A stretch of DNA of 32,000 bases from Candidatus Saccharimonadota bacterium (lineage in GTDB: Bacteria; Patescibacteriota; Gracilibacteria; BD1-5; UBA6164), in the NCBI GenBank assembly GCA_963677765.1, contig OY782392.1:240001-272000 (forward strand), read 5' to 3'. Shown here piece by piece: positions 2,713-28,501 of the stretch; position 1 is the stretch's first letter, and every line of letters starts with the position of its first letter. The translations under genes were made by a program, and so were the position numbers. A model generated the notes under the pieces. It was given only the letters and a program-made list of their open reading frames with translations, searched no databases and was not told where the DNA came from.

Positions 2713-5676
2713 CTATTTTTCTCAAACAGTTATAGCATCTATAGAAAAATCTCATTGATAATTATAACCTGAGACATAATTAATAACTATAAAAGCAGTA
2801 TTACTAGGTAAATCTATATCAGGAGTTTTAGTCCAAGAAGAAGTATAATATGAATGTTGTTGTCCATTAATAGTATATAATGGATTTCATCAATTTAAAA
2901 CATTATTACTAGCATCTCTAGCATAAACACTTACATCTCACATATTAGCTCAATACATATGATAGTAAAAATTTATATAATTTGAATCATCTGTAACATT
3001 ATATATCAATGCTGATGATTTATTAGAAAATCATTTATTATTATCACTAGCCTCTACAAATAAATAAGTATTTCCATCATAAGATCAACTAGGTCAAGTA
3101 TTCCAAGATTTAGTATAACCAGTACTATAATACCAACCATAAGCAGGTCAGTTTTTATTTCTACTTCATATATAAGTCACAGACCAATCTCAAGTATCAT
3201 TTCATTCAAAATTAGTAAAACTTCCTGATGCTTCTTTACATATATTTGTTATATCACCATATCAAGCCAAGTTTTGATCTAATATAGTCCATGTATTACA
3301 TACGCTTGATAAATTTTTCATTCTAATAGAATAAACTTTATCATCTAAACTAATAGTCTTTCAAGCATAAGTATAATTATTTAATACACTCAAATCTTGA
3401 AGACTAGAGTTATTATGTAAATAAAGATTATCTATATTTAAGCTTTGTAATCATGATAAATCAACTACTGAATTGTCTGATAAATCTAGAGTCCTAAGAG
3501 AAGATAAACCTCTATTAAAAACAGTTAAATCATTTACTGAGTTTCAACTAGCATCTAATGACTCTAAACTAGATTTCCATTCAAATCATGATATATCACT
3601 AATGTTATTATCTGAAATATCTACATCAACTATAGACCATTTATCTGTTATTTTTGATATATCACTTAAATTATTATTTGAAACATCTACATATGATAAA
3701 TCACTTGCATTTAATCAGTTAAGATTTGTTAAATTATTATTTGATAAATCAACTCTTACTAATGTCCAAACTGAATTTAATCCTCAAATATCAGTTAAAC
3801 TATTATTTGAAGCATCAAAATTTCAAGCAATTCTTCAAATTTGACTTAATCAGTTAAGATTAGTTAAATTATTATTACTAATATTTAATTCTCATAAAAC
3901 TTCTCTTAACTCATTGAAGTTAGCTAAATCAGAATCAGTTAATCATGCTCAAGAACAATCTATATTTCAGTTATAAGTTCAATTTGTCGAATTAAAATTA
4001 TTATCAAACTCTGTTTCACTTATTCAACACATTGAAACTAATACATTTTTAAAATCAAGATAAGGAGCAAAACTACAAGAAGATCAATCCCATGTATATC
4101 AAGATAAACAAGTATATTTACAAGAGTTAGATTGATTTACAGAACTATATCAAGTAGTAAAACTAGGAGTCCATGAACTTCAATCCCATGTTTGTGTTAT
4201 AGTAGATCAATCCCACCATGTAGATCATGTAGGCAATGTTCAACATGACTCTGTTCTAGTATCTGCTACACATGAACTTCAAACCCAAGAATAATTAGTA
4301 TCACAAGTATATTTACATGCATTTAATTGTTCTGTAGAACTATATCAAGTAGTAAAACTTGGTGTCCATCAACTTCAATCCCAACTTTGTACTATAGTTC
4401 AAGTTCAATCCCACCATATAGCTCAAGTAGGCAATGTTCAACATGATTCAGTTCTTCATCATGCAACACATGAAAATCAATCCCAAGAATAGTTAGTATC
4501 ACATCTATATTTACATGCATTCAATTCTTCTGTAGAACTATATCAAGGAGTAAAACTTGGTGTCCATCAACTTCAATCCCATGTTTGTGTTATAGTAGAT
4601 CAATCCCACCATACTGCTCATGATGGTAATATTCCACAAGCTTCATTTCTAGTAGAAGCTATACATTCATTAGTTGAAGAATTATAATCATAATTATCTT
4701 CACATTTGAACCTACAATCATAAGTACTAGCAGACAAGTTATATTGAGCCTGGTTACTAGGTAAATATTGTCATGAAGTTTCATCCCAATTTTGAGTTAT
4801 GCTAGATTCCGTATTCCATTGAAAATTTGAACTAGGAGCTCATTCACAAGCAACATTATATAAAGTTTGTGCTCATGGTTCACATTCTGATCAATTCCAA
4901 GTAAATCAAGTTTTACATTTAAAATAACAAGGAGAATCTGAATTACTATTTTGCCATGGGGTATTTGATTGAGTTGGAGTATTTATCAAATAATCAGCAT
5001 AAGCATAAGGTTCAGCCTGACATCAATATACATTATCTGCAAAATTATCAACTACATCAGTTATATTGCTAAAAATATCATCTCATGTATTTGAAACTAT
5101 TCTATCATTTCTAAGAAGTACATTAATTAAATCACTATCACCTGTTTCTATATTAAAAGGAGAGCTATATTTTTCTTCTATAGGTACCATTTCACTATCA
5201 AAAAATACTCATACTTCTTTATTTCATACTATGTAAGGAACAAGTCATTCATTATTTTTAACTATAACTTTTTCATATCATAAACTAGTTAGACTAGATT
5301 CATTTTCTAAAAATGTTAAAAGTTGAAAATATTTTCAATCAGCTGATATAGTATAAGTAAAATATCTACCTGTACTAGGATCAACTCATTCCATATTGTA
5401 TTCTATTTTTTCTATAAGGCTAGGTCAAAAATAACCTTGATAAGCTATAGTATCTCAATTATTTTGAATTTCTATAGCTCATTCTGGCATCAAAAAATCA
5501 CCTGAGTTTATTTTTAATGCAACTCAGTCCCTTATATTATTCAATTGAGAAATTCTATTAGAATCTCTTACTCATGATAGATAAGATGTAAAAGATATAA
5601 ATGATATTGTAGCTACAATAGCTATAATAGTCATTACAATTATTAGTTCTATCAAAGTGAATCACTTTTTATTCAT
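2713..5676 (-). CDS. giant modular type IV pilin-like adhesin: prepilin N-terminus + Cys/Trp repeats + LRR array + C-terminal MAM-like domain (987 aa)
   Basis: ATG 5674-5676, TAG 2713-2715; length is divisible by 3 and I met no TAA/TAG in frame. The N-terminus MNKKG|FTLIELIIVMTIIAIVATISF is a class-III signal (G-1, F+1, E+5). It continues with 3 x 65-aa repeats (CGTLPTGAIWWDG..TQ.WDGSGWTPSFTTGYSST..LNACKYTCDTNYSW.G.SC), LRRs (LNISNNNLTNLNGL, VDLSNNNLTNLNGL, VDVSNNNLSDISKI, LDLSDNSVVDLSGL), and MAM-like motifs (GDWSV...GPSGSYDGNTYLFVEAS...FYYHMYGANMGDVSVY...YQGDFSIDAITV). Confidence 0.85.
3376..3942 (-). repeat. leucine-rich repeat array (coding, about 22-24 aa period) inside the 2713..5676 CDS; approximate bounds
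   Basis: Repeated L..L.L.(S/D)NN.(L/I)(T/S)(D/N)(L/I)..(L/I) units in the code-25 translation. The track's 123-aa + strand ORF 3473..3844 is its antisense shadow. Confidence 0.7.
4066..4650 (-). repeat. three tandem about 195-bp (65-aa) Cys/Trp-rich coding repeats
   Basis: The landmark caatcccacc recurs at 4208, 4406 and 4601 (spacing 198 and 195 nt). The three protein units are highly similar and each ends in an EGF-like C-K-Y-x-C-x(3)-Y-x-W-x-G-x-x-C. Confidence 0.8.
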
Positions 5677-5775: not shown

Positions 5776-7434
5776 TTAATCACAAATATGATCAACATTA
5801 GGATAAGAACTTCAATTTTGGTTTCTAATAGTCCAATTATTACAAATATTAGAACTATTATGCATTTTTGTAGTATAGTTTCTAGTATTAATTTGAAAAA
5901 TTCAATTAGTTTGAGTTATTGTTCATAGATAACTTACATTATCTAAAGAATCATTTCATGATAAATTAATATATGTTAAATCTCTCATATCTCTAAGAGC
6001 ATAAGTTGTATTAATATCATTATTCATCAAATTTAAATATTCTAATCAATTAATTCAATATAGTGAATTAATATTTGATATATTATTATTTGCAAGGTTT
6101 AATATTCTTAGAGTATTTCTTCATCAGATAGAAGAAATATCTGTAATATTGTTATCAGACAAATCAAGAGATAATAAATTATTCATACTACTAATAGATG
6201 ATATATTAGTAAGATTATTATCACTAATATCCAAATAATTTATACTATTTAAATTCCTAAGTCATTCTAAGTCAACTAATTGATTTCAAGAAAAATTAAC
6301 ATTAACAAAATTATTAGAAGATCTATTAGATAAAATAGATATATTAGATAAAGAATTATTTTGTATACTAAATAATCAACCTACATATTCTAAGTTACTT
6401 AATGGGTTCAAATTAGTTATGTAATTATTATCTAGAACAAAATTTCAAGTTATTCTTCTAAATCATTGAAATAATAATAAATCATCATCTCTAAGACCTA
6501 TTCAATCACAAATTATATCTCAATTATATTCTCAAGTAGAAGAATTAAAATTAGAGTTAAAAGTTGTTTCTGTTATATTACATTCTCAAGCCAACAAAGA
6601 TGAAATATCAGAGTAATCTATTTCTGGAATAACTCATTCTGGAGCTATTTCACAAAAAAGACCAGTATATCAACTATCACAACTATAACTACAAGAAGCT
6701 CAATTATCAGATTTAACCCAAGATTGATTTACTTCACTAGGAGTTCATTCAAAAAATATAGCATTTGGATAATCAGGTCTAGCCTCACAATAAAATCAAA
6801 CATCTACATAGCAAGGCCATTCAGGATTAATACTTTGATTAGATATAGGTGAAAGCTCCAAACCTGATTCAAAAACTAACTTATATCACTCATCTATAGA
6901 ACAATCGATATTAACATCTCATGAATTAGTTCTATTTATTGGATTATAATCTGAATCAGTAAAAACTCATAAATTATTTTTTCAATAAACATAAGCAAGC
7001 ATAGATTTAGAGTTCAAAAGAAAATTATCTTCATATGTTTTTTTAGGTGCATTTCAAGGTCTTTCCAAAAGAGCTAAAACATCATAATCTTTTTGATTTG
7101 TAGATATATTAACTGTATAAGCTTGTTTTGTAAGTGGATCCTCTCAACTTCAAAAGAATTTTATTTTTTTTAACATATTATCAGATATATCTCATTGACT
7201 AGAATATTTTTCTCAATCAATATAAATATCAACAGAGTTATCTAATCCTAGTTTTTCTTGTCTTGCAAAAGCAAATTCTAATCAGTCTCATATATTTTGA
7301 ACTTGATTAATTCTATTTGTATCCCTAGAATCTTCTAAATAATTAGTATAAGCAACAAATCATATAGTAGATAATATAGTTAAAACCGATATTGTTATTA
7401 ATAACTCAACCAGTGTAAAAGCTTTGTTTTTCAT
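5776..7434 (-). CDS. modular type IV pilin-like LRR protein (552 aa), paralog of 2713..5676 without the MAM domain
   Basis: ATG 7432-7434, TAA 5776-5778. MKNKA|FTLVELLITISVLTILSTIGF is a class-III signal. It continues with an EGF-like Cys module (CSYSCDSGYTGLFC), an LRR N-cap (CNITETTFNSNFNSSTGEYNGDIIC), about 10 LRRs (LDISDNNLTNISSI, LDLSDNNITDISSI, LNLANNNISNINSL) and a C-cap CNNWTIRNQN (compare CNTWTILDQN in the paralog). Confidence 0.85.
5925..6499 (-). repeat. leucine-rich repeat array (coding) inside the 5776..7434 CDS; approximate bounds
   Basis: Periodic L..L.L..N.I..I units in the code-25 translation. Confidence 0.65.
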
Positions 7435-8650: not shown

Positions 8651-8677
8651 AAAAAGTGATTAAATTAATCACTTTTT
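8651..8677. terminator. bidirectional hairpin between 8207..8647 and the coupling-ATPase gene
   Basis: aaaaagtgatt (8651-8661) pairs with aatcacttttt (8667-8677). The stop of the minus-strand gene (8665-8667) sits at the loop/stem boundary. Confidence 0.6.
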
Positions 8678-11121
8678 TTATTATCTATAGCCTTTTGTTG
8701 TTTAGCTAATTTTTCTTTTTCTTTGAAATCTTGCTTTTTCTTTTCCCAAGCAATTTCTTGTTTATCTAAATCATCTATTGAACTATATATTTTTGACTCA
8801 ACACTTTCTTTTGATTTAGAGTATTTTTCACGAGATACTTGTAGTATTTTTTGATATCTTTTTTTAAATGACTCTTCATTTTTCTTATTTGGAGCAAATG
8901 TAGATGCTGAAAAAACTCAAGAAGGCATTCAATCAATTAATTGTTTTGTATAAATATTATATTTTTTCAAATTCATCAAATCATCTTCATTTATATCTCA
9001 AGCTAAAACTTCTTTCAATATATTTGCATCGTGATATCAAACTTGAAAAGAAACAACAGATCAAACATTACCAAATACTGCTCATCTTACTGATTCTTGC
9101 ATTTGATCAATATATTGATTTGCCATAACAAGGTTTAGTTTATATTTTCTTGCCTCACTAAGAATAGTAGCAAAACTATCAGTAGCAAAGTTTTGAAACT
9201 CATCAACATAAAGATAAAAATCTTGTCTTTCTGATTCTGGAGTATCTGACCTACTCATGGCATCAATTTGAAACTTTGTTACCAACATGGCTCATAATAA
9301 AGCAGAAGCATCTTCTCAAATTTTTCACTTAGAAAGATTAACTATAATAATTTTTTTATTATCCATTGCCCATCTAATATTGAAGCTATTTTTGGGTTGT
9401 CATAATACATTTCTAAGTATTGAACTTGATAAGAATTGTCATACTTTGTTAAGTATAGGTCATACAGCTTCATTTCTTTGATTTGGAGCCATTTTAGCAA
9501 ATTCTCAAGTCCAAAACTTTTTAACCACTGGGTCTTTTATTTTATTTACAACTTTATTTCTATAAACTTCACTAGTAAGCATTAATGGTATAGAAATAAG
9601 TGTAGTATTTGGGTATTCTAATAAAGCTAAAATAGTATTTCTAAGTATATACTCCAACCTTGGTCACCAACTATCTCAAAATATTTTTTTAAATATTCAA
9701 ACTAATCATGAAGCAACCAAAGGTCTAAGTTCAGGGCTCACATTTTCTAGCATATTGAAAGCAATAGGCCAAGAAGTATCACTTGGATCAAAAATAATTG
9801 TTTGATTAGTTCTGCTTTTTGGTATAAATCATATTATAGATTCTGCTAAATCACCATGTGGATCAATTACAGCTACTCCTCTTCATTTTCTAATATCATC
9901 AATTATCATATTTTCCAAAAGAGTAGATTTTCACATTCATGTTTTTCATAAAACATACATATGTCTTCTTCTATCGTTTGGTCATATACCAAAACTCATA
10001 TTAGTTCATCTAAAATTAGTTTTTCAAATTGGAGTTAAATTTGTTTCTGGAACTATATCATCTGTTAAATCAGGATCTATTATTGGCAAATTAGATGGGG
10101 GTTCAAATGCACGAGAAGAAACCCAATTGATTTGTGGAGTTTTAACATAACTAGTAGGTAAATGAACTAATCAAGATAGCTCATTTGTAGATAATATTAT
10201 TGAATTATCTACTTTTCTTTTTTTAGCTCTATATATAGTTTCTTGATCATTATATATTCAATCTAAATCAAATGAATTAAGTCAAAAATATGAAAAAACT
10301 GACAATGTAGAAAATATTTCTCTAATAGTTCATTTTGATTCTACTTTGTCCTCTCAAGCATGTATGATATTTATTGATGTATCATATCAAGATAAACTAA
10401 GTTTATTTTTCATAAAGTTCAATACTGAATCTTTTTCATTATTAACAACTTCTCAATCTTCTGTATCTGCTTTTTTGAAAAATAAATTAATAAACCAGGC
10501 TAATATATAAAATGGGAAAAATAATATTTTAAAATATATATATTTATTACTAAGTAATATTTTTTTTATAAAACTAGGATATTTTGATAAAACTATTTTA
10601 ATTATATTATCTTGATTTTTTTTCCAATTATCATCTTTTAAAGGAGTAAAGTTTATTTGAAAAGTATTCAAAGTATATTTACCTGTTTTTGATAATGCTG
10701 ATGTAATACTAGAAAATGGATCTACTATATCATTACTAGCAGCTTCTTGAAGCTCAGTAAATGTTTTTATAGGATAATAATGATGTTTTGATAATGAAAG
10801 TTTTCATATATGTATTTTTGAATCTGGAATATTTTCCAAATAATCCCCTACTTCTATTATTTCTACATCTGTAAAATGTGCATATATTTGATTTGATAAA
10901 AAGTTGGCATATTTTCTTGGAGATACGATAAAAAACCTGATTCTGTTTCATACCTTTGTTATTTCAAAAGAAAAAGTAGGTTGAGAATCAGTTTTTTTGA
11001 ATATTTTCTTTGTAGAAAAATCTTCAAAAACCTTATGAAGTATAATTAAAATATGCTCAAATACTCATGGTCATTTGAGATTATTTTTATCTACTAGTAT
11101 TTCAAGAACAACTTTATTCAT
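8665..11121 (-). CDS. VirD4/TraD/TraG-like (type IV coupling protein-like, HerA/FtsK-superfamily) membrane ATPase, 818 aa
   Basis: ATG 11119-11121, TAA 8665-8667. Walker A is HMYVLGKTGMGKSTLL (all three G of GKTGMGKS are TGA) and Walker B is FYLYVDEFQNFAT. Also present: ILSEARKYKLNLVMANQYIDQ, typical of TraD/VirD4-like C-terminal modules, a central hydrophobic hairpin (YIYFKILFFPFYILAWFINLFF), and a K/E-rich tail. Confidence 0.75.
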
Positions 11122-11182: not shown

Positions 11183-11629
11183 TTAAAACAAAAACTTTTT
11201 TGCAAAAATTTTATGTAAACTACATTTAACTCTAATTTCAAACTCATCTAAGTCATAATCATCAAAAACAACAACACTATCACTATCTACCGATAAAAAT
11301 TTTTCATCAACTAAATCAGAATATTCATCATATAATCATACCCAAGTTATTCTATGATCATCTCACATTGGATGTGAATTATTTCATATAATAACTTCTA
11401 TAGAGAAATCATCTCTTGATACTTCTATATCATGTTCTAAATCAATTTTATCAACAGTATTTTCATCAATATATGTAACTTCTTCATTGATATGATGAAA
11501 ACTATCATACTCATTACAAACAGGACAAAACTCAAATTGATCAATTTTAGTTCAAGCTTCTATTCAATCTACTTCATCTCATATAGATTCATCATAAACA
11601 TAGTTACAATTAACACATAAATATTTCAT
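11183..11629 (-). CDS. rubredoxin-like domain fused to a superoxide reductase (neelaredoxin/desulfoferrodoxin-type) domain, 148 aa
   Basis: The N-terminus YLCVNCNYVYDES...FEFCPVCNEY has two CxxC knuckles. The C-terminus has LEHDIEV, SHPMGDDHRITWVGLY (HPMxxxHxIxW) and KCSLHKIF (CxxH), which matches the SOR iron-ligand pattern. Confidence 0.65.
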
Positions 11630-19896: not shown

Positions 19897-21033
19897 ATGT
19901 TTTGAAAGAAAAAAATAGACTTAAGTTCATATGTAAAAGATGATAATAAAAAAGAAGAAAATTTAGCTTCTTCTAATCAATCTGAAGAAAATGAAATAAA
20001 AACAAATGAAGAAAATGAAGTAGTTACAAAAAAAATAAATACTAGTGCCCTAAAAGTTACTAACAAAAAAGAATTAGAAAATACTACTCAAGAAACAGAA
20101 GAAACTATTGAAATTGAAAAAACAGAAGTAAATAATAAAGATTTAAATAATTCTAATATAGAATATAATTATGAAACTGTAGTTTCTGAAGTTATAGAAG
20201 AAGAAAAAGAAGTAGTATCTACAGAAGATAACAAAGAAGTAGAAACTCAAAATCTTGAAGATGAAAAAGAAGAAAATTCAGAAGAAATACAATCAGAAGA
20301 AACAGAAGAAGAAGAAAATAATTCTGAAAAAGTTGAAGAAAAAATAAATTATAACTATGAAACAACTGTAGAAGAAAAAAAAGAAGAAACAGAAGAAGAA
20401 AGACAAAAAAGAATTGACGAGCTAACATCAAAAGTAGAAATTGATGATGAAAAATTAAAATACGAAGAAAAAGAAATTTTTTGAAATTATAAATCTGACT
20501 ATGATAAAGTAGAAGAAAAAGAAGAAATTAATAATGAAAAAGTAAATAAAAATATAAATGAAGTTGAAAATATTGAAGATTCTACAGTAAAAAATGAAGA
20601 AAAAAAAGATAATAAAGAAGAAAATTGATTAAAAAAAGTTAAAAAACCTATAAAAAAGAAAAATATTATTATATCTATAATAAGTTTAATAGTAATTACT
20701 TGAACTGCTACTACTTATTTGTTATATAGTAACTGACTTTTTCAAAAATGACCTCTTGTAGCTGAAATACAAGAAGAAAAAATCCCTGAATGGGAAATGG
20801 TTTCAGAAGAAATAAATGATTATAAAATAACTTATGAAACTAGAACTTTTGATAATTGAGATACAGAATATAGATTTAATGATCAAGTTTTTACTAAAAA
20901 ACAAGATTTAGATGAAAATATAAATAAATATATAGAATCTTTAATCGAAGAAAATAAAGAATTAACAAAAGAAGAAATAGAAAAAATAATTATTGATAAA
21001 ATAATAAAAAAATATTTAGAAAGAACTATGTAA
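19897..21033 (+). CDS. bitopic membrane protein with a long acidic E/K-rich N-terminal region (378 aa)
   Basis: ATG 19897, TAA 21031-21033. About 250 aa of low-complexity E/K/N sequence contains a duplicated (I/N)YNYET(V/T)V element. This is followed by a single TM (IIISIISLIVITGTATTYLLY) and a C-terminal domain of about 100 aa. Confidence 0.6.
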
Positions 21034-21168: not shown

Positions 21169-22395
21169 ATGGCTAACAATATCGCAGAAATTGAAAAATT
21201 CCCGATAAAAAGAGAGATTTGAGACACAGTAAGTTATGTTTCAAATATTTTTAAGCAGGCCATAGATAAATGAGCATCAGATATACATATCGAACCACAT
21301 GAACATTTTTTACTTATAAGGTTCCGTAAGGATGGTGATTTCATGATCATAGATAAACTAAACAGAGAACATATTTCAGCAGTAGTAACAAGACTTAAGG
21401 TATTATCAAAAATTAAGATTGATGAAAATAAAAAACCTCAAGACTGAAAGATAGTATATTACTATGAAGCTGAATGAAAAAATATAGATATCAGACTTTC
21501 TACCCTACCTACAAGTTACTGAGAAAAGGTAGTAATGAGAATACTAAAACAAGATGAATCACTAATAAATATTGAAGCTCTTTGATTGATAGATGTAAAC
21601 CTACAAAAAGTAAGAGAAGCTCTTAAAAGTAAATATTGAATAATGCTTGTTGCATGACCTACTGGTTCATGAAAATCTACAACACTATTCTGAGTACTAA
21701 AAAACTTTAATCCATTAGAATTAAATATATCAACTCTAGAAGATCCTATCGAATATGATATAGAATTCGTAAATCAATCTCAAGTAAAACCAGATATATG
21801 ATATACATTTTCTTCATGACTTAGATCATTAGTTAGACAAGATCCAGATATCATAATGGTATGAGAAATCAGAGATAAGGAAACAGCAGTACTAGCTGTA
21901 GAAGCTGCCCTAACATGACACTTGGTATTATCAACAATACATACGAACTCAGCAGCAGGTACAGTACAAAGACTTATAAACATGTGAGTTGAACCATTCT
22001 TACTAGCTTCAGCAATGAAAATGGTAATAAGTCAAAGACTTTGAAAAAAGATATGTCCTCACTGTAAAGAAGAACAAAAAATATCAGAACTACAAAAGAA
22101 AAAAGTAAAAGAATTTTTAGGTCCTATACTTGATGAAAATGACATAAAAAATGCTAAATTTTATCATTGAAAATGATGTGATAAATGTAGTTGAACTTGA
22201 TATAAATGAAGACTTGGTATACATGAAGTTCTTATAGTTTGAGATTATTTAGAACCACTTATATTGAATAAAGAAAGTGCTAATGCTATGAGAGATTTAG
22301 CAATAAAACACTGAATGGTAACAATTGTACAAGATGCGTTAATAAAAGCTTTAATGTGACAAACTACTGTAGAAGAAGCTTTTAAATTAATTTAA
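21169..22395 (+). CDS. pilB: type IV pilus assembly ATPase PilB/GspE family, short form (408 aa)
   Basis: An AAGGA sequence lies about 5 nt upstream of the ATG. Walker A LVAGPTGSGKSTT at 21652-21680 has two Gly encoded by TGA. Also present: Asp box LEDPIEY, Walker B DPDIIMVGEIRD, His box LTGHLVLSTIHTN, and a tetracysteine CPHC...CDKC. Confidence 0.9.
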
Positions 22396-22409
22396 TAATA
22401 CATATAAAA

Positions 22410-24311
22410 ATGTTTGGTTTTTCAAAAAAAATAAAAAATGTAAATAATGCTGATGTAAAGGCATTTGATTGAGCAGTAAAAGCAATAGAAATATATATTG
22501 CTCTTTCAGAGTGGGCAAAAGCAAAAAAAGCTATTGAAGAAATAATGCTAAAAGAAAAAGAATCTTTGACTAACTATATAGAAAAACTATATAGAGAAAA
22601 ATGAGATGTTGAAGCTGAAAAAATAAAGTTAGCAGAAACTAAAAAATTTTCAAAAAAAGAAGCTCAAATAAAAAAATTAAAAGAAAAAGTAATAAAACTA
22701 GAAGCAAAATATATAGAAAAAATAGAAAAAGATAGATTTCAAATAAGATTCAAAAAAATAAAAGATGAAATAGATACTCTTATTTGAAAAAGAAAATCTG
22801 TTCAAGCAATGTGAATTTTACAAAAATTCTTAGAAGAAAACAAAGAAAATTCTATAGTTATTAAGTTTTATAATACTCAGAAGAAAAAAATTCAACTTAA
22901 TATAGAAAAACAAAGAAAACTAGAACAAGATAAAATCAGGAGTAATGCTAGAATGGAAGCTTTGAACCTTATAGGTGAAACAACTAATCTAGATGATGAA
23001 AAAAATAGTAAAAAAGATGATAAAAAAACTTTTGCAAAGAACTTGCTAAAAAAACTAAATTTTTATAAAAATATAAAAACAAAAATCAAAAGGAAAAAAC
23101 TTCTTGATGAAATAAATCTTTTGATAGAAGAAGATAGTAAAGCAAATGATGAGCTTGCAGAAAGAAAATTAGAAAGTATACATAAATGATTAGTAAAAGA
23201 AATAAGCAAAAACAAAATGATTGGTTATGACTTATACTGAAAAATATTATGAGCTGATAAAATATCTGGTGATACTTTTTGAATAGAAGAAACATGAGAT
23301 AAATATAAATTCTTTATATGAGATGCGACTGGTAGATGAATAAAGGCAGGTTTTGTTATAACTATGCTTACTAGGTTGTTTAAAGAAAATATTAAAAAAG
23401 ATTTAAAAGAAATAGTATTAAATGTAAATAATGGTTTAAAACAAGACTTAAAATCTAGAAACTTTATTACTTGAATATTTTTTGAAGTAGATAAAAAATC
23501 AAATGATTTAGGATATGTATGAATGGGACATGAACCAATTCTTGTATATAGAGCAAAAGAAAATAAAGTAGAAAAAATTATTCCAGGTTGATTGGCAACT
23601 TGAATTAGAATTATAAAAGATGCTAATGAAATAAAAGTAAAAAATATACAACTAGATGACTGAGATGTTGTTATTACATATAGTGACTGAGTAGTTGAAA
23701 ATAAAAACTTAGAATGAGAATCTTATGGAATAAATAGACTTATAGAAAACTTTAAACTAGTAGCTGAAAATGAAAAAAGACCTAGAGTTATATATGATTA
23801 TTTAATAAATGATTTAAAACTATATGGTGGTTGAAGTAATTTTGGAGATGATGCAACTCTTATAATTCTTAGAAGAGATTCAAATAAAGATATAGTTTCA
23901 GAAGAAGATAAGTATTTAGACGATTTAAAAGCAAAAGAATGATTAGATAATAAAGAAGTTAAAAAGTTAAAATGAAAAACCAAAAAAGAAATAGAAAAAG
24001 AATTAGAAGAAATTAGAAAAGCAAAAGAAATAAAAAGAATACTAAAAGTATTAGAAAATCTTTACTATACTTGAGAAATATTAAAACTAAAAGAAGAAGC
24101 AATAAGATTTATTAAAAAATGATATATTCATAAAAAAATCAATTTTTATTTAAGAAAAGCGATAGAAAATGAGAAAAAATACAAAATTGAACAAAAAAAT
24201 CAAAAAATGCAAAATAAATATAATGTATTAAAAGAATTATATAAAAAATGAGATTATACAACTGTTATAAACGAAGTTGAAGAAATAATCGCGAAAGACG
24301 GAAATATTTAA
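22410..24311 (+). CDS. SpoIIE/PP2C-family phosphatase domain flanked by long K/E-rich coiled-coil regions (633 aa)
   Basis: ATG 22410 (14 nt after pilB), TAA 24309-24311 (14 nt before pilC). The central domain reads ISGDTFGIEETGDKYKFFIGDATGRGIKAGFVITML...GMGHEPILVYR...GDVVITYSDGVVE...GESYGINRL...FGDDATLIILRR, matching the SpoIIE/RsbU-type Asp-containing motifs. Confidence 0.75.
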
Positions 24312-24325
24312 TAAAAATTTAAAAT

Positions 24326-25543
24326 ATGTTGGCTATTTGAAACAAATTTTATGATAGGTATTGAAACTTTGATAACAAGAAATTCATAGAACTTCTTGAA
24401 GAAGCAAAGAAAGCTCAATACAAATGAGTCAGAAAAAAATCAGGTTGATGAGCTATAGAAATCAACTTATTTCAAGGTGTTAGTAAAATGGAATTATGGC
24501 AATTCATAAACAAATTTTCTATATTTGTAAATTCATGAATTGATATAAAATGAGCACTTTGAATTCTGGTAAAACAAATAAAAAATCCAATGCTAAAAAG
24601 GATTTGAATGGAAATGAAGGAAAATATTGATCATGGTATAAGCTTGAGTGAAACTATGAATCAATACCCAAAAGTATTTGATCCACTAACTACTTCCCTA
24701 ATTTGAGTTTGAGAAAAAACATGACAATTAGGTAAAATATTAGCTGAACTAGATACAAACTTGCTTGAAAATATAGAGTTAAAATGAAAGGTAAAATGAG
24801 CGATGATTTATCCTGCTATACTATTGTTTTTAACTCTTGCCATGGTTGTATTTATGATGGTATTTATTGTACCAAGAGTAACAGAATCATTTGCAAAAGC
24901 TGGTGCTGACTTACCTGCTTTGACTCAATTTATAGTAAATGTTTCTGACTATATAGTTAATGATTGGTGAAAACTATTATTTTGAGTAGTAGCTGTTATT
25001 GCTTTTTTCAAAATACTAAAATCAACTTATTTTTGAAAAATTGGTTTAGCTATATTAGCAACAAAAATGCCAATATTTGGTTATGTAGTTAAACAATCTA
25101 ATATAGTATATTTTATAAAATCATTTACTATATTACTTGATTCTTGAGTTTTATTATTAGAATCAATGAAAACTGCTAGTAAGGTAGTACCAAATCTAGC
25201 ATATAAAAAAGAATTAATAAGAATCAAAAATGAAGTAGAGGTATGATTAACAATATCTAAATCTCTATGATTAAATCTTGATTATGAAGAGTCAGTATAT
25301 TTAAATAAATTATTTCCGGAAGAATTCGCATACGTAGTAAGTACTTGAGAAGAAACATGAAGTTTATCATGATCTCTAAAAAAAGTATGAGATAACTATA
25401 ATGGTGAACTAAAAAGATATATTTGAAACATGTCTAGTATGATGGAGCCTATTATTATCGTAATAGTCTGAGCCTTAGTTGGTACTATTGTAGTAGGTAT
25501 AATGTCTCCTTTCTTTGAAATGTGAGAAATCGCAAAAGGATAA
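24326..25543 (+). CDS. pilC: type IV pilus platform protein PilC/GspF family (405 aa)
   Basis: Two GspF-type repeats (FSIFVNSGIDIKGALGIL...SLIGVGEKTGQL and FTILLDSGVLLLESM...VVSTGEETGSL) and three TM segments. Ends ...GIMSPFFEMGEIAKG*. Confidence 0.9.
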
Positions 25544-25741: not shown

Positions 25742-26380
25742 ATGAGAAATACAAATAAAGCCTTTACTTTGGTTGAGCTTATCGTAGTTATTACTATATT
25801 AGCTATACTTGGTACAATAGCTTTTATATCTTTACAAGGATATACTGGTGAAGCTAAAAACTCTAAAGTTACTTCTGACTTAAGAAACATTGCTTCTGCA
25901 ATTGAAACTTCATCTACTAGAAATAGTGTTTTATTAGCTGATGTATTACTAGCTAATACAAATGTTTCATCAAATAATGCAGTTGATGTAACATCAACTT
26001 TTTGACCAAAAAATATAGCATTAAATAATACTGCTTCTGGAGTTACTTATGCTGTTGGTAATGTTGATTTTGCTGCAGTAGAACAAAATGGTGAAGATTT
26101 TAAAGATCCTAATGGTATAAAACCAGGTACTACTGATGAACAAGCTGATTATATTTTTGCTATGGTTACATCTCCTGATTTTAAAGCTTACCAATTAGCT
26201 GGTCAAATTATCGAAAATGATATTAAAAAATCAAGAGTTAATGGTACATTCTATACAGCTTCAGGTACAACAGCAAATGGTTTAATATCAGCTGCATCTG
26301 ATACTGCTAACAATGAATTAATTAATGGTGATCCAATAATTTGAACTACACCTACTCTTCCTGATTTATATAACAACTAA
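25742..26380 (+). CDS. type IV pilin, candidate major pilin (212 aa)
   Basis: MRNTNKA|FTLVELIVVITILAILGTIAFISLQGYTGEAKNSKVTSDLRNIASAIE. It has its own promoter region and a strong terminator. Only 2 of 15 Gly codons are TGA (hand count) and GC is visibly higher than in neighbouring genes. The track splits it into two ORFs at TGA 26006. Confidence 0.85.
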
Positions 26381-26386
26381 TATATA

Positions 26387-26434
26387 AACAAATAAAAAAA
26401 CAAGATTTTAAAAATCTTGTTTTTTTATTTGTTT
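26387..26434. terminator. long palindromic bidirectional terminator between the major pilin gene and pilT
   Basis: aaacaaataaaaaaacaagattt ... aaatcttgtttttttatttgttt; the arms are exact reverse complements. Confidence 0.7.
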
Positions 26435-26440
26435 AATTTT

Positions 26441-27526
26441 CTAAGCTAATGCTTCTTTTATAAGTTTTGGATTATTAGAAAATTTCATTCATTCATCTTC
26501 ACTAATAATTCATTTATGAATATATGAAATAATATCTGTTTCTAATAATTGCATTCATTCTCTAGCTCACATTTGTATAACTGAAGGAATTTGATGTAAA
26601 TCATTTTCTCTTATAAGATTGGCTATTGCTGAATTTTTTACTAGTATTTCTTTAGCTAATACTACCCCTGTACCATCACTACTTTTTAAAAGTCTTTGAG
26701 AAAATACAGCGATAAGAGAATCAGCTAACTGCATTCTTATTTGGTTTTTATCTTCTCAAGAAAAACTATCAAGTATTCTTGTTATAGTTTGATAAGCACT
26801 TCTCGTATGCAATGTAGAAAAAACTACATGTCATGTTTCAGAAAGTCTAAGAGCCATTTCCATTTCTTCTCTGTTTCTCATTTCTCAAAATAAAATAACA
26901 TTTGGATTTTGTCTCATCGCTCATGTAAGTGCAGTAGTATAATCAGGAACATCTTTACCTATTTCTTTGTGTTCCATAATAGATTTTTTATGTGGGTGAA
27001 CATATTCTATAGGATCCTCAATAGTAATTATATGTTTATTATAAGTTCTATTTATATAATCAATCATTGCTGCAAGAGTAGTTGTTTTACCTGAACCTGT
27101 AGGACCAGTAACAAGTATCAAACCTTGTCCTTTTTTTGTAACATCTTTATAAACATCTGTAAGACCTAAATTATCTATGTTTGGTATATCTGAAGTCAAA
27201 AGTCTTAGAACTACCATATAATTAGATAATTGAAATGAAATATTTGCTCTGAATCTTCTTTCTCAAAAAGTAAAAGAAAAGTCTAAATTTCTTGTTTTTA
27301 TTAATATATCATGTTGTTTTTCAGTCATAATAGATTGAGCAAATTCCATAGTATCTTTCCATGTAAATGGATCTAATCAATCATCAATTCTAATAATATC
27401 TCAACCAATTTTTATAGCAGGATGAGTTCATGCAGTAATATACATATCACTACCTTCATTATCAATCATAATTTGTAAAAGTTGGTCTTTCATTATATGG
27501 TCTGGTTTTATAACACTGTTTGTCAT
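26441..27526 (-). CDS. pilT: twitching-motility retraction ATPase PilT (361 aa)
   Basis: ATG 27524-27526, TAG 26441-26443. Walker A LILVTGPTGSGKTTTLAAMI (here all GGT/GGA), IITIEDPIEY, NPNVILFGEMRN, ETGHVVFSTLHT, and AIANLIRENDLHQIPSVIQMGAREGMQ. Confidence 0.9.
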
Positions 27527-27631: not shown

Positions 27632-28501
27632 TTATGATCTAGTAAATTTATTTCTCATAAAATAAGCACTTGATACTATAAAAGTAAGTAACATAACAAA
27701 CCAAGTTGCAGCTCATACTTCTGGGTTTTCAGCAGCATTTAAAGCAATTTCTTCAACTTCTGTTATTTCTTCTGTAGAAGTTTCTTCACTAACTTCTTCT
27801 GTAGTTAATTCTTCAACTGCTTGTTTTATTTCTTCTTCTGATATAGTTTGAATTAAACTACTTGTAGTAGAAAAATCATATAAATAATCATCAAATTCTA
27901 ATATATTAGAATCTACATCTCTAAGGTCAGATAACATTAACATATAATCACTAGATTTTTCTAATCTATCAACTAATTTTACATTTAATAAGTTATCTCC
28001 ATTTGCTGAAAAAGAATCTACTCTTAATTCAGATAATATTTTGTATTCTAATATTTGAGAAGTAACTTCATAGTTATAATAAATTTCAATAGTTTTTGAA
28101 TCTAATATATTTATTTTTTGTATTGATTTTGAGTTTTCATCATAAGCTAGATTAGCTATTTCTCAAGAAACAGATTCACTAACTGAAAAATCCATATCTC
28201 AATCAGCACCATATGCTCATAATAAGTTATATCATTCTCCTGCTTTTAATTCTTTTCATAAGTTTAATAAGACTTTTGAAGAATCTGCAGTATCAATTTG
28301 AGAAAATGTAACTTCTACATCTTTTATAACTCTAACATCCCCTGATACTTCACCATCTTTGAAAACTATATCATCAGATCAAACAACAGTTATATTTTTA
28401 TCATCAATAACTTGAATATCTTCTACATTAGAAGCTAAAGCTAAATTAATAGAAAAAACACTTAATATAAATAAACTGATTAAAGCCTTTATTGTTTTCA
28501 T
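27632..28501 (-). CDS. secreted protein with N-terminal signal peptide, acidic linker and C-terminal TM + basic tail (sorting-signal-like), 289 aa
   Basis: MKTIKALISLFILSVFSINLALA|SN...; then the acidic EEEIKQAVEELTTEEVSEETSTEEITEVEE; then NPEVGAATWFVMLLTFIVSSAYFMRNKFTRS*. Confidence 0.6.

Follow-up and report, generated by a model that had tools for sequence, protein, structure and literature searches.

A SpoIIE/RsbU-type phosphatase encoded between pilB and pilC in Gracilibacteria as a proposed subunit of the type IV pilus motor

A 32-kb window of Gracilibacteria DNA (assembly GCA_963677765.1, contig OY782392.1, positions 240,001 to 272,000; all coordinates below count from the first letter of this stretch) harbors a type IV pilus (T4P) locus in which a gene for a SpoIIE/RsbU-type PP2C protein, here named X, lies between pilB and pilC. 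The present analysis suggests, with a probability of about 0.55, that X is a cytoplasmic, platform-held phosphatase subunit of the RsbU/SpoIIE type in the Gracilibacteria T4P motor and is cotranscribed with pilB, pilC, and the pilin gene. A functional membership of X in the pilus machine is very likely. Gracilibacteria are tiny bacteria that live attached to other microbes, and in the Candidate Phyla Radiation (CPR)/Patescibacteria, attachment to hosts and uptake of DNA are ascribed to T4P. A cultivated Saccharibacterium reportedly depends on T4P for its life as an episymbiont (PMC9894109, as cited in PMC11452946). If the proposal is true, it would give a functional anchor to a conserved Gracilibacteria protein so far labelled just "SpoIIE family protein phosphatase".

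Catalytic domain and genetic code

X is encoded on the forward strand at 22410-24311 and comprises 633 amino acids (aa), with 24 in-frame UGA codons under translation table 25. A profile search of this translation with SpoIIE (PF07228) gave a strong, full-length match (E = 9.6e-36; 124 bits against a cut-off of 25), spanning residues 296-489 of X and positions 2-191 of the 192 in the profile. All Asp-containing motifs are present, namely GDTF (D288, codon at 23271-23273), GDATGRG (D305, 23322-23324), YSDGVVE (D426, 23685-23687), and GDDATLI (D480/D481, 23847-23852), and they align with the metal-binding motifs SGD, SDG(M)G, SDG, and DD of SpoIIE (structures 5mqh and 3t91). An earlier note on this DNA, made from the letters alone, had described a central SpoIIE/RsbU-type PP2C domain with complete Asp motifs in this protein, and that description is borne out: Pfam, sequence alignment with Protein Data Bank (PDB) entries, Foldseek, and the invariance of the Asp residues place the SpoIIE/RsbU-type PP2C (PPM) domain at aa ~259-490 (23184-23879, forward strand). 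In a conservation set of 41 sequences (37 orthologs and four fusion proteins, down to about 30% overall identity), the catalytic residues D288, D305, D426, D480, and D481 were invariant in 41/41, as were G287, G304, T307, G308, G310, G427, and E430. X is likely to be an active phosphatase. Residue 309 of X (23334-23336) is the Arg of GDATGRG, where His is found in 40 of the 41 relatives and fusions; this Arg is probably tolerated, because SpoIIE has Asn and RsbU has Lys at the matching position.

The whole window is coherent as coding DNA only with UGA as a sense codon and is read with genetic code 25, in which UGA encodes Gly and not Trp; in X, the UGA codons at aa 304, 310, and 427, all in catalytic motifs, match Gly of the non-recoded Bacillus subtilis SpoIIE and Mycobacterium tuberculosis Rv1364c. 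The window has a GC content of 24% and contains three open reading frames (ORFs) of at least 150 aa under table 11 versus 32 under table 25. Correctly coded deposited orthologs have Gly at 17/17 UGA sites, a count that is non-independent since those Gly are possibly UGA-encoded too. The database protein P0001 is the window's own X gene in a code 4 translation, with Trp at every UGA position, and many public copies of these proteins have likewise been translated with code 4, placing Trp at each UGA site and distorting the catalytic motifs. No tRNA gene was found in the window.

The pilB-X-pilC operon and its conservation

At the window locus, pilB (21169-22395, forward strand) encodes an extension-type T4P ATPase of 408 aa with a CxxC...CxxC tetracysteine motif (Pfam T2SSE, E = 3e-119), and pilC (24326-25543, forward strand) encodes a 405-aa T4P platform protein with two T2SSF repeats (Pfam, E = 1.7e-48). 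X is separated from pilB by 14 nucleotides (nt) (22396-22409) and from pilC by another 14 nt (24312-24325), as the earlier note had stated. A pilin gene (25742-26380, forward strand; 212 aa, N-terminal methylation motif, Pfam N_methyl), the position of which is conserved in related loci, probably closes the transcription unit. Between pilB, X, and pilC no terminator-like site was found, and the sole strong hairpin, a bidirectional terminator-like structure with a near-perfect 20-bp stem (26387-26433), follows the pilin gene and precedes the convergent pilT (26441-27526, reverse strand), encoding the 361-aa retraction ATPase (TIGR01420 PilT, E = 3e-121, above cut-off). In the region, nine terminator-like sites were detected versus 0.6 expected. 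A terminator and a promoter in the 14-nt gaps would speak against cotranscription; the gaps hold no terminator-like site, and promoter-like matches were at chance level (44 versus 49.7 expected in a scan that is uninformative in 24%-GC DNA).

More than 200 database proteins match X. The best 120 share 49-96% identity and are nearly all full-length, with a length of about 630-640 aa, and the X relatives in databases carry the source label Gracilibacteria and are named only "SpoIIE/PP2C family phosphatase" or "RsbU". When 1.84 billion cluster representatives were searched exhaustively with a profile, about 30 full-length X representatives were recovered, with scores dropping steeply from E <=1e-85 for full-length matches to about 1e-40 for matches to the PP2C core only. 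A genome scan with one genome per species yielded 40 loci with a full-length X relative (32-96% identity), and pilB lay directly upstream in 40/40, whereas pilB or pilC was nearby in 0/40 of the other 40 loci recovered (L043-L082), which encode generic PP2C proteins of Peregrinibacteria, Proteobacteria, Planctomycetes, and others. Directly downstream of X, pilC was present in all 38 loci whose contig reached far enough. The median gaps were 13 nt between pilB and X (40 loci) and 16 nt between X and pilC (38 loci), and in-frame UGA codons occurred in 40/40 X loci. In a control with reversed ascertainment, in which metagenome loci were anchored on PilB, X followed by pilC was found in 2/2 loci with close PilB relatives (77-82% identity), compared with a PP2C gene within 5 kb in 0/78 loci with distant ones (43-51% identity), which had the usual pilB-pilC or pilB-pilT-pilC layouts. 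The position of X between pilB and pilC is thus a conserved arrangement and no chance insertion, and the possibility that it is unique to this genome, on which the earlier reading would have failed, does not apply (40/40 genome and 2/2 metagenome loci). The synteny survey that the earlier note had proposed places pilB-X-pilC in Gracilibacteria lineages that use code 25, and a related lineage with the standard code has it in fused form; no locus under the name Absconditabacteria turned up, and the design of the scan is unfit for concluding absence.

Natural fusions of the phosphatase with PilC

Just below the X family in the profile search, SpoIIE and T2SSF domains were found in one chain of about 1,030-1,120 aa in at least ten clusters at the 50%-identity level (P0148, P0172, P0179, P0180, P0194, P0214, P0220, P0225, P0236, and the partial P0230); the census was a profile search of cluster representatives, and the count is a lower bound. 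A further homolog search with the fusion alignment yielded just five proteins and added no PilC sequence, probably owing to the many K/E-rich words. Four continuous fusion ORFs, encoding proteins of about 1,040-1,120 aa, were verified in DNA (L083:2626-5853, L085:1427-4558, L087:8001-11345, and L084:8001-11366). The carriers L083, L085/L086, and L087 are standard-code genomes with zero in-frame UGA codons and a GC content of 30-43%, and have a T2SSE gene (396-401 aa) directly upstream of the fusion. L084 belongs to a recoded genome (52 in-frame UGA codons, 24% GC) in which the full X architecture continues into PilC; this case is a single contig with no pilB upstream. Compared with the window, the standard-code carriers show 46-52% identity in PilB and 63% in FtsZ, and FtsZ and L9 are encoded near the pil genes in both, so these carriers are, by sequence comparison, relatives of the window lineage. 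One fusion has the NCBI label Gracilibacteria.

In the fusion proteins, the C-terminal end of X is joined to the N-terminus of PilC. The N-terminus of PilC is cytoplasmic, and the orientation of the fusion is consistent with a PP2C domain located in the cytoplasm, at the cytoplasmic face of the platform. An AlphaFold2 (AF2) model of the fusion P0220 has confident PP2C, C-terminal arm, and PilC parts connected by a low-confidence joint of ~150 residues (597-745), which suggests a flexible tether and not a docked interface. Taken as sequence evidence, the fusions imply proximity between X and PilC, and the idea in the earlier note that the arms of X could tether it to the platform gains support because natural SpoIIE-PilC fusions exist. 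In a neighbor-joining (NJ) tree of the PP2C core, X and the L084 fusion formed a clade in 100/100 bootstrap replicates.

Helical arms and predicted structure

The PP2C domain of X is flanked by an N-terminal arm (aa 1-258, 22410-23183) and a C-terminal arm (aa 491-633 plus the stop codon, 23880-24311), both rich in charged residues (K, E, R, and D together make up 43-45%). No transmembrane (TM) segment was found in X, the top 19-residue Kyte-Doolittle mean being 0.93 and located inside the PP2C domain. AF2 modeling of the ortholog P0003 (67% identity to X; 43-sequence alignment; mean predicted local distance difference test (pLDDT) score of 76.6) gave N-terminal helices at 16-31, 35-60, 67-126, 130-143, and 148-186, a low-confidence segment at 187-215, a 40-residue helix at 216-255 that runs straight into the PP2C sandwich (259-486), and six C-terminal helices across 498-626. 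The PP2C domain adopts the expected beta-sandwich fold with a pLDDT of about 85-93, and the top PDB matches of the model in Foldseek were SpoIIE (5ucg), RsbX (3w40), Rv1364c (3ke6), and SiaA (6k4e), with E about 1e-10; RssB was also among the best matches, PppA (6jkv) was matched as well, and the match to 5ucg includes part of the SpoIIE regulatory domain. NCBIfam and PADLOC gave no match for X or for a fusion, and a reading of X as part of a defense system was dropped on these grounds.

By the model, the N-terminal arm of X consists of several long helices interrupted by a weakly conserved, low-confidence stretch at aa ~191-218, and a pre-PP2C helix of ~40 residues occupies aa ~219-258 (23064-23183). 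By analogy, this helix matches the position of the dimerizing coiled-coil linker (alpha0) of RsbU-type phosphatases. In RsbU, activation occurs when the linker preceding the PPM domain folds into a coiled coil and thereby dimerizes the phosphatase domains, a mode of activation that has been argued to apply to a range of phyla and sensor domains (Baral et al. 2025, PMC12143880). Mean identity to the window X was 40-42% in the N-terminal arm, 28% in the stretch 191-218, which is probably disordered, 56% in both the pre-PP2C helix and the PP2C core, and 66% in aa 536-633 of the C-terminal arm. The last ~100 residues of this arm are therefore the best-conserved region of X; because they are better conserved than the enzyme core itself, the sequence comparison points to a specific binding surface there, and they are a candidate docking or tethering module facing PilC. 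In some relatives, the N-terminal helical module occurs in one to three extra tandem copies, giving totals of 900-1,220 aa with the rest of the protein unchanged in length. Carriers of this duplication are P0118 (L002/L030), P0121, P0127, and L038:5158-7851.

Loss of the N-terminal domain of PilB

The PilB of the window aligns with positions 181-559 only of the 564 in profile TIGR02538 and lacks the N-terminal domain of ~170-180 aa found in canonical PilB/GspE. Across loci, PilB was 403-419 aa long beside X (39 loci with a complete pilB) and 396-401 aa beside the fusions, versus a median of 575 aa in 77 PP2C-free loci of the PilB-anchored set, 92% of which had at least 500 aa. The N-terminal region of canonical PilB anchors or regulates the ATPase by binding GspL or PilM, or by binding cyclic di-GMP (c-di-GMP) in MshEN-type domains. 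From this correlation, we infer that the PP2C protein may have taken over the role of the PilB N-terminal domain.

Proposed role of X and alternative explanations

In the proposed mechanism, of which dimerization, the surface of attachment, the substrate, and the consequences for pilus dynamics are inferred, the conserved C-terminal arm would keep the enzyme at the cytoplasmic face of PilC, a connection that in related lineages is made by fusion to the PilC N-terminus through a flexible linker. The N-terminal helical module would serve as an input or partner-binding part, and the helix just N-terminal to the PP2C domain would pair two copies of X and thereby switch the phosphatase on, as in RsbU-type enzymes. 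Active X would then strip phosphate from Ser/Thr residues of PilB, PilT, PilC, or a closely associated protein, and this dephosphorylation would gate pilus extension versus retraction. In addition, X would have assumed the regulatory or anchoring function of the PilB N-terminal domain lost in these lineages. The earlier note had suggested control of the PilB/PilT switch, or pilins or PilC as targets of dephosphorylation. Only tentatively can PilB, PilT, or PilC be named as the substrate and the extension-retraction decision as the output, and the substrate is a guess because no phospho-partner is encoded nearby in the window or in the related loci. An extended form of the proposal is likewise conceivable rather than probable: an integral Ser/Thr phosphatase in Gracilibacteria and their standard-code relatives would replace the PilB N-terminal domain and sit on, or be fused to, PilC, so that a phospho-switch, and not control of the c-di-GMP or PilM type, decides between extension and retraction during host attachment or predation. 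In that case the Gracilibacteria pilus would be the first machine of the type IV filament class to have a protein phosphatase built into it.

Several results weigh against the platform-held phosphatase. A kinase, STAS, FHA, or similar partner was found in no gene or small ORF of the window, nor were these partner types present among the conserved neighbors (about 6 kb of flank; 39 sources, that is, the window and 38 related loci). The arms of X had no match in Pfam, NCBIfam, or the PDB by profile search. Although the earlier note was right about charged flanks without a TM segment, the heptad character that it ascribed to them was not above shuffled controls (z = 1.0 for the N-terminal and 0.0 for the C-terminal arm in a crude test that is not a validated coiled-coil predictor), with a high score in residues 76-135 only; the arms are helical in the model, and the designation "coiled coil" is not used for them here. 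The AF2 model of P0220 showed no rigid phosphatase-PilC interface (predicted template modeling score of 0.45). Moreover, the NJ tree of the PP2C core grouped X with the standard-code fusions in 15/100 replicates only, and comparison of the arms of X with those of the standard-code fusions by hhalign found no homology (probabilities of 0.3-11%). In the PP2C core, X and the standard-code fusions share 31% identity, and the fusions and generic PP2Cs share 32%. Two possibilities fit this pattern, namely a single old insertion followed by fast divergence of the arms, or two recruitments of a PP2C to one place, and the functional link between X and the pilus is strengthened under either origin.

Among the alternatives, X could be the input phosphatase of a partner-switching pathway, seated on a machine as SpoIIE is at the division septum and reporting the state of the pilus platform, such as contact with a host or the load on the pilus. 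Its target would be a small protein of the STAS type or similar, with its gene elsewhere, and dephosphorylation would alter gene expression or another output and not the motor. This is unlikely but is the strongest of the competing explanations, as the characterized members of the SpoIIE/RsbU subfamily (SpoIIE, RsbU/P/X, Rv1364c, and SiaA), which are also the best structural matches of X, have small partner proteins as their targets, the N-terminal helical module and linker helix of X fit the signal-input design of RsbU-type enzymes, and the pilus locus encodes no candidate substrate. However, partner-switching modules are usually encoded beside their phosphatase, and neither a STAS protein (anti-sigma-antagonist) nor an RsbW-type kinase was found in the window or in the ~6 kb flanks of the related loci; reduced genomes like these are expected to hold few regulators, and the fusion to PilC together with the co-occurring loss of the PilB N-terminal domain points to a role within the motor.

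It is more doubtful still that X is mainly a structural scaffold bridging PilB to PilC, in place of the PilB N-terminal domain and/or a cytoplasmic ring of the PilM/GspL type, with the PP2C domain as a body or ligand-binding module whose catalysis is secondary or lost, as in the pseudo-phosphatase RssB. The truncation of PilB wherever the PP2C is present would fit such a scaffold, as would the missing Pfam matches to PilM, PilN, and PilO in the window, the stronger conservation of the C-terminal arm relative to the catalytic domain, and the adaptor-type PP2C of RssB among the structural matches. Against this, neither the five metal-binding Asp nor the Gly, Thr, and Glu that flank them vary in 41 sequences down to about 30% overall identity, and such constancy is not expected of a non-catalytic scaffold. 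Finally, the idea of an unrelated regulatory gene carried in the operon by chance, with no functional tie to the pilus, is strongly disfavored and very improbable, as nothing beyond the absence of a known pilus-related substrate and of direct experiment speaks for it, whereas synteny in 40/40 and 2/2 loci over deep divergence, tight gaps, repeated fusion with pilC, the lack of a PP2C in 78 other T4P loci, and the lack of pil genes beside 40 generic PP2C genes all stand against it.

Comparison with known systems

Known control of T4P motors involves ATPase exchange, c-di-GMP-binding N-terminal domains, PilM-type rings, and lineage-specific adaptors, and with a PP2C encoded between pilB and pilC, or joined to PilC in one chain, reversible phosphorylation of Ser/Thr at the platform would become a further means of control. 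The proposal is unusually testable because evolution supplies fused and unfused versions, a clean boundary between presence and absence, and a correlated loss of a PilB domain. X has the same catalytic domain, metal-binding Asp, and fold as the RsbU/RsbP/SpoIIE-type PPM phosphatases (PF07228). In RsbU, RsbP, and SpoIIE, however, the PP2C domain is C-terminal, and X has a conserved helical arm of ~145 residues after it. The layout of an N-terminal module, a long helix, and the PP2C domain is shared with RsbU-type enzymes, and in RsbU the helix dimerizes and activates (PMC12143880). Unlike these enzymes, X has arms that match no known sensor domain and no STAS or kinase gene nearby, and it is embedded in or fused to the T4P core. 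X as an ortholog of B. subtilis SpoIIE was ruled out by the lack of a TM region (top 19-residue Kyte-Doolittle mean as above), where SpoIIE has an N-terminal multi-pass membrane region and an FtsZ-interacting regulatory domain, and the N-terminal arm of X matches nothing in SpoIIE beyond the PP2C domain.

In the type VI secretion system (T6SS) of Pseudomonas aeruginosa, the kinase PpkA, the PP2C phosphatase PppA, and Fha1 control assembly after translation, by threonine phosphorylation, from within the gene cluster of the nanomachine. X resembles this system in that a PP2C is encoded inside the gene cluster of a membrane nanomachine. PppA, in contrast, is small and stand-alone and is encoded beside a Hanks-type kinase and an FHA target, whereas X is long-armed and sometimes fused to PilC, the machine is a T4P, and no Pkinase or FHA match was found in the window or among the conserved neighbors. 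Cyanobacterial EbsA-Hfq-PilB and HmpF are cytoplasmic proteins confined to their clade that associate with the PilB/PilC motor and without which extension fails (PMC11407516). They are like X in showing that T4P motors do acquire lineage-specific subunits, but they do not belong to the PP2C class of enzymes, their genes lie elsewhere than between pilB and pilC, and no fusion of them to PilC is known. In Synechocystis, SpkA and other Ser/Thr kinases, the RsbU-like Slr2031, and phosphorylated PilA1 have been linked to T4P motility (reviewed in PMC7076178). These regulators, in contrast to X, are encoded by dispersed genes outside the motor operon, and the review reports no physical link between them and PilC or PilB.

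The earlier note had been aware of no described pilus machine with a built-in Ser/Thr phosphatase, and literature searches agree with it. Full-text searches returned nothing for SpoIIE with pilB and pilC, for RsbU with PulF, or for PP2C with type IV pilus and PilC, and papers and supplements on Gracilibacteria, Vampirococcus, Absconditabacteria, T4P of other CPR bacteria, and metaproteomics mentioned no phosphatase in a pil operon. The parts are thus known, and for their combination, a PP2C within or fused to the T4P motor core, no published description was found.

Other genes of the window

The conserved neighbors of the operon comprise an acidic single-pass membrane protein upstream, followed by the pilin, pilT, a secreted C-terminally anchored protein, RuvX, and L9. 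In the window, the upstream protein (19897-21033, forward strand; 378 aa, no Pfam match) begins with an extended acidic stretch of low complexity and has a single TM helix and, C-terminally, a domain of ~110 aa; in at least 23 related loci, a similar protein is encoded ahead of pilB. A divergent alignment protein of the PilN/O type is a possible identity for it, and its membership in the transcription unit is uncertain. No Pfam match to PilM, PilN, PilO, or the prepilin peptidase PilD was found in the window, despite at least five pilin-like genes together with pilB, pilC, and pilT. Next to pilT lies a gene for a 289-aa protein (27632-28501, reverse strand) with a signal peptide, a C-terminal TM anchor, a basic tail, and no Pfam match; this gene adjoins pilT in 20/39 sources.

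In addition, two large pilin-like proteins of 987 and 552 aa are encoded on the reverse strand (2713-5676 and 5776-7434). In both, Cys-rich repeats and leucine-rich repeats come after a methylation leader at the N-terminus, the larger one ends in a MAM domain, and they are probably adhesin-tipped minor pilins for host recognition. Near the pilus genes, an 818-aa coupling-type ATPase resembling VirD4/TraG/HerA (8665-11121, reverse strand; DUF87, TrwB_AAD_bind, and TraG-D_C) was also detected, and a 148-aa ORF (11183-11629, reverse strand) carries rubredoxin and desulfoferrodoxin domains, the latter superoxide reductase-like.

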